Assembly: GCF_056712565.1 (NCBI RefSeq)
Contig: NZ_CM160072.1
DNA length: 64,000 bases
Reading direction: 5' to 3' (one strand)
Position numbers and translations under genes: made by a program. The notes under the pieces were generated by a model. It did no database searches. It was not told the origin of the DNA and worked only from the letters and a program-made list of their open reading frames with translations. Below, piece after piece: positions 39,948 to 40,114 of the stretch (position 1 is the stretch's first letter; each line of letters begins with the position of its first letter).

Positions 39948-40114
39948 AGTAGATAATAAAACTATATATGGAACATCATCGCATCTGGCTAATGCGATGA
40001 TATTAATGACATAAAATAATAATGTGATTGCTCTTAAAAAACAGGTAAAAATACTGAAGCCTCATTAGGTTATTTTATCATTTTCCCGCTTTTACCGATA
40101 CCCTTTGGCTGGAG
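39948..40114 (+). repeat. Direct repeat 1 of the conserved inter-module spacer
   Basis: Near-identical to 40646..40811; contains the palindrome catcatcgcatctggctaatgcgatgat. Confidence 0.8.

Follow-up and report, generated by a model that had tools for sequence, protein, structure and literature searches.

What is the palindrome that recurs behind the immunity genes of the usp locus of Escherichia coli, and does it matter as RNA or as DNA? The question is raised by a window of 64,000 nucleotides (the whole stretch analysed, from contig NZ_CM160072.1 of assembly GCF_056712565.1), in which the island known as PAIusp carries the toxin gene usp, its cognate immunity gene imu1 and two orphan immunity genes, imu2 and imu3. 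A preliminary description, made from the letters alone, had noticed an inverted repeat in the spacers behind the immunity genes and had offered three options for it: an RNA processing or stability element, a protein-binding site or a recombination hotspot. The best explanation is that the palindrome reflects, at the level of DNA, a stem-loop of the sense-strand RNA located in the 3′ untranslated end of every usp-type immunity cassette. Its role can be proposed only tentatively, at a probability of roughly 0.45 and by analogy with known systems: the stem-loop would be a 3′-end or intercistronic mRNA stabilizer and processing boundary, acting at most as a leaky attenuator. The hairpin is a real structural element of the mRNA, but one of an ordinary and already familiar kind, and finding it opens no new field.

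Read directly, the sequence confirms that the palindrome is real, that it is repeated downstream of the immunity genes and that it is kept in both spacer copies. All the copies described here are given on the plus strand. Copy 1 (39975..40001; positions 39974-40001 read catcatcgcatctggctaatgcgatgat) starts 27 nt past the imu1 stop codon and pairs ATCATCGCAT (39975-39984) with ATGCGATGAT (39992-40001), giving 10 perfect pairs around the 7-nt loop CTGGCTA (39985-39991). Copy 2, after the imu2 stop (40670..40702), pairs AACATCATCGCGT (40670-40682) with ATGCGATGATGTT (40690-40702); it has 13 pairs, including one G·U, and the same loop CTGGCTA, and it differs from copy 1 at two positions. The stem of 10-11 bp with a 7-nt loop given at first is right for copy 1 as regards 10 bp and the loop, but an eleventh pair would join C39974 to A40002, and the stem of copy 2 is longer, at 13 bp. 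Both of the copies listed then exist, but a third, diverged one behind imu3 had been missed. This terminal copy 3 (41368..41402), of what is called here the A-type, pairs GAAAATCATCAC (41368-41379) with GTGATGATTTTC (41391-41402) across an 11-nt loop and starts 27 nt past the imu3 stop, the same distance as in copies 1 and 2, from which it differs by compensatory changes, C-G to A-U and G-C to A-U.

The folding-energy calculation that had been suggested as a check supports the structure: the predicted RNA energies of copies 1 and 2 are -12.6 and -17.7 kcal/mol, below those of dinucleotide shuffles (z of -3.4 and -5.5), and copy 3 reaches -15.8 kcal/mol. The pairs also persist when the hairpins are folded with 150 nt of context on either side, with pair probabilities of 0.71-1.0. 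Perfect hairpins with stems of 10 bp or more number nine in the 64-kb window, all distinct, where block shuffles lead one to expect 0.63; three of the nine belong to the island. The motif ATCATCNY-N6-16-RNGATGAT has four matches in the window, three in the island, against 0.01 expected. A short palindrome at 49975-49997 (ATCATCATCGTCATGATGATGAT) is a chance match to the search pattern and is unrelated to the island. The other six perfect hairpins of at least 10 bp lie at 25723-25748, 26199-26242, 29096-29125, 32313-32346, 34747-34771 and 54420-54447.

The comparison was then widened to loci encoding related immunity proteins, plus Usp relatives (numbered with an L below). Of the 47 immunity-gene stops examined in E. 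coli, Salmonella enterica (subsp. enterica and salamae), Superficieibacter and the metagenomic scaffold L020, 41 have a hairpin behind them, located 25-27 nt from the stop wherever the canonical stop codon is used. One further hairpin stands behind the sole immunity gene available for the metagenome-assembled genome UBA5654. Contig scans with an immunity-alignment query, whose peptide patterns were too specific, returned no relatives, and scans with a Usp-alignment query returned 13 loci, among which only UBA5654 has the hairpin. None was found in the more distant usp-like loci of Lelliottia, Siccibacter, Enterobacter, Citrobacter On2M, Escherichia sp. E1V33 and S. diarizonae; the immunity genes of these hairpin-less loci show 41-51% identity, with a few at 72-73%. 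Homologous islands thus do show the conservation that had been asked of them, with covarying pairs, in the arrays of Salmonella and Superficieibacter and in two enterobacterial lineages known from metagenomes.

Some of these arrays, namely those of Salmonella, L020 and UBA5654, are compact. In S. enterica subsp. salamae (L014, CP022467.1, 5279-7377) six intact and different immunity genes lie downstream of usp, 360-368 bp apart and separated by 69-nt spacers without DNase fragments, and similar units occur in L020 and UBA5654. Each L014 spacer consists only of 27 nt, the hairpin and CACTACAGGAGATAA, namely the 15 nt that close the toxin gene, with the Shine-Dalgarno sequence of the next immunity gene in them. 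An additional 5-bp helix (CUGUA/UACAG; 5586-5632 in L014) lengthens the hairpin in the internal spacers of Salmonella; it pairs the ACAG of ACAGGAG, in the Shine-Dalgarno region of the next gene, and is absent in the other lineages. The usp-type islands of Superficieibacter and related metagenome scaffolds (L012, L013, L018 and L019) are not at aroP-pdhR; they are found between a gene for a ProP-like major facilitator superfamily (MFS) transporter and a convergent cluster encoding a C39-peptidase ATP-binding cassette (ABC) exporter, HlyD and OEP.

How the arms have changed was followed in an alignment of 20 distinct hairpin variants. Five base pairs covary, changing on both sides or via wobble intermediates: pair 8-40 (AU 11, CG 7), pair 15-33 (GC 9, AU 7, GU 4), pair 16-32 (CG 14, UG 4, UA 2), pair 17-31 (AU 3, GC 3, GU 2) and pair 5-43 (GC 13, UA 2). 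Both the covariation score and the fraction paired are above those of all 500 column shuffles; the true register is 79.7% paired with a score of 0.191, against no more than 53.9% and 0.099 for any slid register, and RNAalifold independently gives the same 11-pair core. A covariance model built from the alignment matches only post-immunity positions, to which it adds UBA5654 from outside the training set (E=0.007), and it finds nothing in K-12, in ColE plasmids or in the more distant usp-like loci. An Rfam cmscan of 36000-42000 at E<=10 gave five chance-level matches (at most 19.6 bits), none of them on the hairpins.

Across classes, the mean pairwise identity of the arms is 0.80-0.86, against 0.42-0.52 for the 20 nt on each side, and the loop measures 5, 6, 7 or 11 nt, with 15 nt in one copy. 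Because the arms outlast their flanks, the base pairs covary and the loop length varies, these sequences argue that selection acts on a hairpin, probably in the sense RNA. As to the strand, the 13 core pairs include 12 G·U cells, which pair only in the sense strand, versus 4 A·C cells, which pair only in the antisense, and 95.6% of the core pairs are paired in the former versus 92.4% in the latter. Among the three options first offered, the G·U covariation favours the RNA element.

Several observations weigh against selection on an RNA hairpin. The aligned copies are related rather than independent, and the lean toward the mRNA strand is weak and not significant, because it amounts to roughly six independent events versus three. 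Templated, palindrome-perfecting mutation of quasi-palindromes in the DNA could mimic covariation without any selection. In copy 1 itself, the C·A mismatch at 39974/40002 leaves these two bases unpaired, so that the stem has 10 bp instead of 13. No hairpin stands behind the last immunity gene of the Superficieibacter-type islands or behind that of L020, and the terminal copy of one S. salamae strain has decayed, with three mismatches; the hairpin is therefore dispensable at least at the ends of arrays. Lastly, between E. coli and Superficieibacter the entire spacer is well conserved as a block, beyond the hairpin.

The block conservation and the decayed or missing copies would also suit a functionless relic, that is, the terminator of an ancestral toxin-immunity operon which was copied with each cassette and conserved only through recent duplication. 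Of the 5426 complete genomes of E. coli, 1050 carry the whole spacer with 87-100% identity, at one to four places each, all of them chromosomal, and all the matches examined (L001-L006) are in the usp island. However, when the internal class is compared with the terminal one, or one genus with another, the flanks fall to 42-52% while the arms keep 80-86% with their substitutions compensated, and the hairpin was kept in three compact-array lineages where all else between the immunity genes was deleted. A relic is an improbable explanation.

If the hairpin is an RNA structure, is it a terminator? The preliminary description had seen no T-run behind the palindrome and had doubted an intrinsic terminator, and this judgement stands for copies 1 and 2, whose tails ATTAATGA and AATAACAT have none. 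An intrinsic terminator has a G+C-rich stem and then a U-rich tract; here 4-5 of the 10-13 pairs are G-C and the RNA tails are AUUAAUGA and AAUAACAU, with at most four U in the 8 nt behind the stem. A scan for the terminator consensus reported none of the usp hairpins of the window, of the Salmonella locus L014 or of L020. The hairpin at 25723 (AAAAGGCGCAG-GATT-CTGCGCCTTTTTT), which resembles a classical bidirectional terminator, served as a positive control. A natural point of reference is T1 of ColE7, a stem-loop just distal to cei in the order cea-cei-T1-cel, which is a partial terminator, binds CsrA and is a reported mRNA stabilizer (PMC2896534).

The tails were compared by opening the base of each stem stepwise and inspecting the nucleotides that follow. 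Copies 1 and 2, which are C-type with an AAC...GTT base, yield no more than four scattered U in 8. In the A-type, which comprises the E. coli terminal copy and all Salmonella copies, opening four A·U pairs leaves a 7-bp stem (-7.5 to -9 kcal/mol) and the tail UUUUCGCU or UUUUCACU (5 U in 8), copy 3 being of the UUUUCGCU kind. The corresponding tails are UUCUUUCA for ColE T1 (-10.4 kcal/mol) and UUUUUUAU for the canonical terminator at 25723 (-12.6 kcal/mol). What separates the two types is a compensated change of A-U to C-G at the stem base, by which the U-run disappears but the pairing is preserved. The C-type is no terminator; the A-type may be a weak one, by analogy with T1.

These properties bear on the possibility that the main function of the hairpin is that of a leaky intrinsic terminator or attenuator, which would grade expression along the array, with the cognate immunity gene highest and the orphans lower, and shield pdhR from read-through. 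The opened A-type tail is comparable to that of T1, itself described as a partial terminator (PMC2896534), and the A-tract and U-tract flanks resemble those of the bidirectional terminator at 25723. Nevertheless, the stems are AT-rich, with 3-5 G-C pairs and none at the base, the consensus scan passes no copy, and copies 1 and 2 have no U-tract at all. Furthermore, in L014 five serial hairpins precede intact immunity genes, and the spacers there lack the segment with the claimed promoter; by inference, and provided that those genes are expressed, the hairpin cannot terminate efficiently. Leaky termination as the main function is accordingly considered unlikely.

The closest known system is ColE T1, of which the usp hairpin would be a non-homologous analogue. 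Both are stem-loops just distal to a PF01320 DNase immunity gene, neither is a canonical strong terminator, and the U count of the T1 tail is about that of the A-type copies. The two differ in geometry, T1 lying 8 nt past the cei stop with a stem of ~16 bp, whereas the usp hairpin lies 25-27 nt past its stop with 10-18 bp. They differ also in the loop, which in T1 has the GGA for CsrA, whereas the loops of the usp islands (CUGGCUA, GUUCUA and GUUCUGGUUAA) lack it, and in their surroundings, since T1 precedes a lysis gene that is absent in the usp island, where the hairpin is repeated once per cassette. The island has no DNA similarity to any Col plasmid, the only match being an 834-kb E. coli "plasmid" record with the same island, and the covariance model has no match in the ColE loci L008 and L009. 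A CsrA site was considered for the usp hairpin and rejected: some copies from E. coli and from Salmonella no longer have the GGA that adjoins the stem on its 5′ side, and in no copy is it in the loop.

Intercistronic stabilizers offer a second comparison. The repetitive extragenic palindromic (REP) element in malE-malF is an extragenic hairpin between cistrons that blocks 3′-exonucleases without terminating transcription. The usp hairpin is also a stable extragenic hairpin between cistrons, and its role would be similar. It is not a REP element or part of a bacterial interspersed mosaic element (BIME), being AT-rich (G+C of 0.31-0.48), confined to the island and present in at most four copies per genome. 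The papers on Usp/Imu and on Hcp-ET covered here, a set without the original Hcp-ET paper (Ma et al. 2017), mention no hairpin, no terminator and no imu transcript map.

The proposed mechanism is as follows. The usp and imu genes would be transcribed into one read-through polycistronic RNA from the upstream TyrR-dependent aroP-P3 promoter, and a stem-loop would fold behind each immunity cistron. The stem-loop would both block 3′-to-5′ exonucleases and delimit endonucleolytic processing in the AU-rich, single-stranded spacer next to it, and in these two ways it would determine how stable each toxin/immunity segment is relative to the others. At the array's end the A-type form (A-tract, stem, UUUU), which would be the ancestral one, might in addition terminate weakly, like ColE T1. 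In the internal copies of E. coli and Superficieibacter, the A...U base would have been replaced by C...G, with the U-run lost and the stem kept; the loss of the U-run fits the need for the polymerase to read through into the orphan immunity genes. The stabilizer role is plausible because of the colicin T1 precedent. The idea of an RNase III substrate was set aside, the stems, mostly 10-13 bp, being probably too short for that enzyme.

Could the inverted repeat instead be recognized as DNA by a protein? Recognition as an operator by a dimeric DNA-binding protein, or specific binding by an Imu protein, would account for conserved half-sites of the form ATCATC/GATGAT, and Imu3 does bind to DNA as well as to RNA in vitro, although this binding is reported to be non-specific (PMC3917654). 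The spacing of the half-sites varies with the loop (5-11 nt, and 15 in one copy) and is thus hard to reconcile with a dimeric operator of fixed spacing, the inner bases of the half-sites change, and the island has no regulator gene. By inspection, no LexA, TyrR or PdhR box overlaps the hairpin. The spacing of the arms disfavours the protein-binding site offered at first, and there is very little chance that the palindrome is of this kind.

The other way of acting as DNA would be by extrusion, with a hairpin or cruciform promoting the gain, loss and shuffling of cassettes as an integron-like or slippage-prone boundary. The arrays hold different immunity genes, each trailed by the same palindrome. 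In this window the three immunity genes are of different types, with 64-67% mutual identity and the last 26 codons invariant, and strains arrange the types differently: this window and UTI89 have alpha-beta-gamma, L003-L005 gamma-alpha-beta and one genome of sequence type ST131 alpha-beta-gamma-beta. Yet the long conserved tracts, which cover the last 26 immunity codons, the spacer and the DNase fragment in its 5′ part, are enough for ordinary homologous recombination, and the exchange points appear to lie elsewhere. In the E. coli arrays L001-L006 the last gene ends in ...DSE-TGA and is followed by an A-type hairpin irrespective of its immunity type; because this terminal segment is constant whichever type is last, the exchange points would fall in the invariant 3′ end of the immunity genes, upstream of the palindrome. 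In addition, the G·U intermediates seen in the alignment are mismatches in DNA.

The junctions of the compact arrays are the other source of support for a DNA-level role. In the spacers of L014, L020 and L024, the 3′ arm of the hairpin directly abuts the last 15 nt of the toxin gene (GATGATTTTC joined to ACTACAGGAGATAA), and it also shares microhomology with the toxin 3′ end. That end, ...CA[C/T]GA[T/C]GA[A/G]AT[T/C]CA[C/T]TA[C/T]AGGAG (39633-39662 in the window), has GATGA..TTC in common with the 3′ arm. The junction suggests that the DNase fragments of the compact arrays may have been removed by microhomology-mediated deletion.

Known cassette systems were compared as well. Integron attC arrays likewise have co-oriented small genes, each trailed by an imperfect palindrome or a repetitive intergenic sequence, but the stems of the usp hairpin are perfect, with no bulges or extrahelical bases, and measure 27-47 nt, in contrast to the 57-141 bp of attC. 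The attC core RYYYAAC...GTTRRRY is absent: the C-type has only AAC...GTT (ATGGAAC/GTTAATA misfits) and the A-type AAA...TTT. No integrase, attI or other recombinase was called in the flanks examined, which hold ampD, ampE, aroP, pdhR and aceE in E. coli and Salmonella and the MFS transporter and ABC exporter genes in Superficieibacter. In Rhs and contact-dependent inhibition (CDI) loci, displaced 3′ toxin fragments with immunity genes lie behind the main toxin, and conserved flanks permit the swapping of modules. The usp island resembles them in having a toxin gene and displaced 3′ fragments, each with an immunity gene; we know of no conserved covarying hairpin described at the module boundaries of Rhs or CDI loci. 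Repetitive sequences between genes are also a feature of the Bacteroidales rAID-1 arrays, which hold orphan immunity genes (10.1101/471110), a likeness that favours the DNA-level reading, but the usp arrays have no recombinase, XerD-type included, and are not members of that group. A recombination hotspot is neither needed nor shown, and a DNA-level element is quite improbable.

A bolder form of the same idea is that the hairpin marks the boundary of an integrase-independent, integron-like system for collecting immunity cassettes, and that it directs their capture, compaction and shuffling, either as a DNA hairpin or via the microhomology with the toxin 3′ end. If true, this would explain the Salmonella arrays, in which six different immunity genes are separated only by 69-nt hairpin spacers, and the RNA hairpin would keep each captured cassette expressed. 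We regard it as a long shot.

The origin of the hairpin as a collapsed fragment of the DNase gene was also considered and rejected, the likeness being probably a coincidence: local alignments are marginal (equalled in 25/500 and 37/500 shuffles). The usp codons for His-His-Arg-Val (ACATCATCGTGT, 39556-39568) match the Superficieibacter 5′ arm at 12 of 12 positions (L012, 5500-5512), and the covariance model has a weak match inside usp (E=0.35). Within usp, ACATCATCGTGT also forms a 9-bp long-range inverted repeat with ACACGATGAG (39633-39642); this repeat is probably a coincidence, since the toxin genes of other lineages, which have ACACCACCGGAT, ACACCATTTTAT and others at the His-His codons, do not share it. 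The only solid part of the collapsed-fragment idea is that, at the junction in the compact arrays, the 3′ arm resembles the 3′ end of the toxin gene.

Do the spacers also bear promoters for the orphan immunity genes? The preliminary description had proposed a weak one, TTGCTC...ATACTG, for which the sequences give no support. TTGCTC is at 40028-40033 and ATACTG at 40051-40056, and the latter agrees with TATAAT at 0 of 6 positions; the best register, TTGCTC-16-AATACT, scores 7/12, under the scan threshold. The -35 hexamer is not conserved, being GTGCTC in spacer 2 and GGGTCT in Superficieibacter, while AAATACTGAA is invariant among the long spacers, and the whole segment is absent from the compact arrays of Salmonella, L020 and UBA5654. 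Promoter-like sites are not in excess in the region (11 found against 13.1 +/- 3.8 expected), and in L014 the scan places such matches in coding sequences only. The scan also lists TTTAAA-16-GATAAT (9/12) at 39930 and 40628, straddling the immunity-gene stops just upstream of the hairpin; as a candidate promoter it is no better supported.

The hairpin is of practical interest in several respects. PAIusp, which serves widely as a marker for extraintestinal pathogenic E. coli, is found in 1050 of the 5426 complete genomes considered here, and the Usp toxin is a type VI secretion system (T6SS) effector and a reported genotoxin. The stem-loop would provide a mutable handle on read-through into the orphan immunity genes and on post-transcriptional ratios of toxin to immunity protein. 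It bears on whether chromosomal nuclease-toxin loci share the post-immunity stem-loop logic of the colicin plasmids, and it is a handy landmark for cassette limits in the typing of PAIusp variants.

The locus itself is the published PAIusp island, with usp, imu1-3 and two orphan DNase fragments. Uropathogenic-specific protein, encoded by usp, is a nuclease-bacteriocin-like genotoxin, and imu1-3 are found downstream of its gene, always in the aroP-pdhR intergenic region (PMC7142922; PMC3917654). In agreement (PMC7142922), the island of the window is inserted with aroP (34781-36151, minus strand) on one side and pdhR (from 41801) on the other; E. coli K-12 has none of the ~5.3 kb between these genes. 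The island encodes the 593-aa Usp with its nuclease-bacteriocin C-terminus and three small immunity open reading frames (ORFs), all PF01320. Its DNA is 99.9-100% identical to the locus of UTI89, APEC O1 and IHE3034, and the RefSeq annotation of the UTI89-type locus lists tssD (593 aa), three "bacteriocin immunity proteins" and two small hypothetical proteins.

All the genes of the array are on the plus strand. It begins with usp (37879..39660), also called Hcp-ET3-4 and annotated as tssD, whose product is a 593-aa Hcp-pyocin-DNase toxin with homologues that have the domains T6SS_HCP, Pyocin_S and Col-Pyo_DNase. The cognate DNase immunity gene imu1 (39663..39947; PF01320, 94 aa) is followed by spacer 1 (39948..40114), made of 27 nt, the hairpin and ~110 nt of AT-rich DNA, with the claimed promoter at 40028-40056. 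Then come an orphan 3′ fragment of a usp-type DNase domain (40115..40354), starting from LWLEVS and bearing the Shine-Dalgarno sequence of imu2, the orphan immunity gene imu2 (40355..40645, 96 aa) and spacer 2 (40646..40811), a copy of spacer 1. A second orphan DNase 3′ fragment (40812..41047), with a stop codon inside at 40998-41000, precedes the orphan immunity gene imu3 (41048..41344), whose RefSeq homologue begins at the second ATG, 41054. The repeat unit is thus ~698 bp long and consists of a 3′ fragment of the DNase domain (LWLEVS to stop), an immunity gene and a 167-nt spacer. From this composition, the two "hypothetical proteins" are orphan toxin tips, as in other polymorphic toxin loci.

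The published promoter of usp is the divergent aroP P3, activated by TyrR and repressed by H-NS (PMC7142922). In the window an insertion sequence (IS) of the IS5 family, ISKpn26-like and 1196 bp long (36463..37658, plus strand; transposase ORF 36531-37511), is flanked by the target duplication TTAG (36459-36462 and 37659-37662). Its position is 217 bp upstream of usp, where it separates the intact toxin gene from the published aroP-P3/TyrR promoter region, and UTI89 has the empty site (caccatgccTTAGccacc). The IS belongs to the setting of the hairpin system and not to the system itself. Of the 5426 complete E. coli genomes, SCU-172 alone matches the island query, IS included, over at least 80%, and its usp is 5′-truncated. 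The insertion could silence usp or re-drive it.

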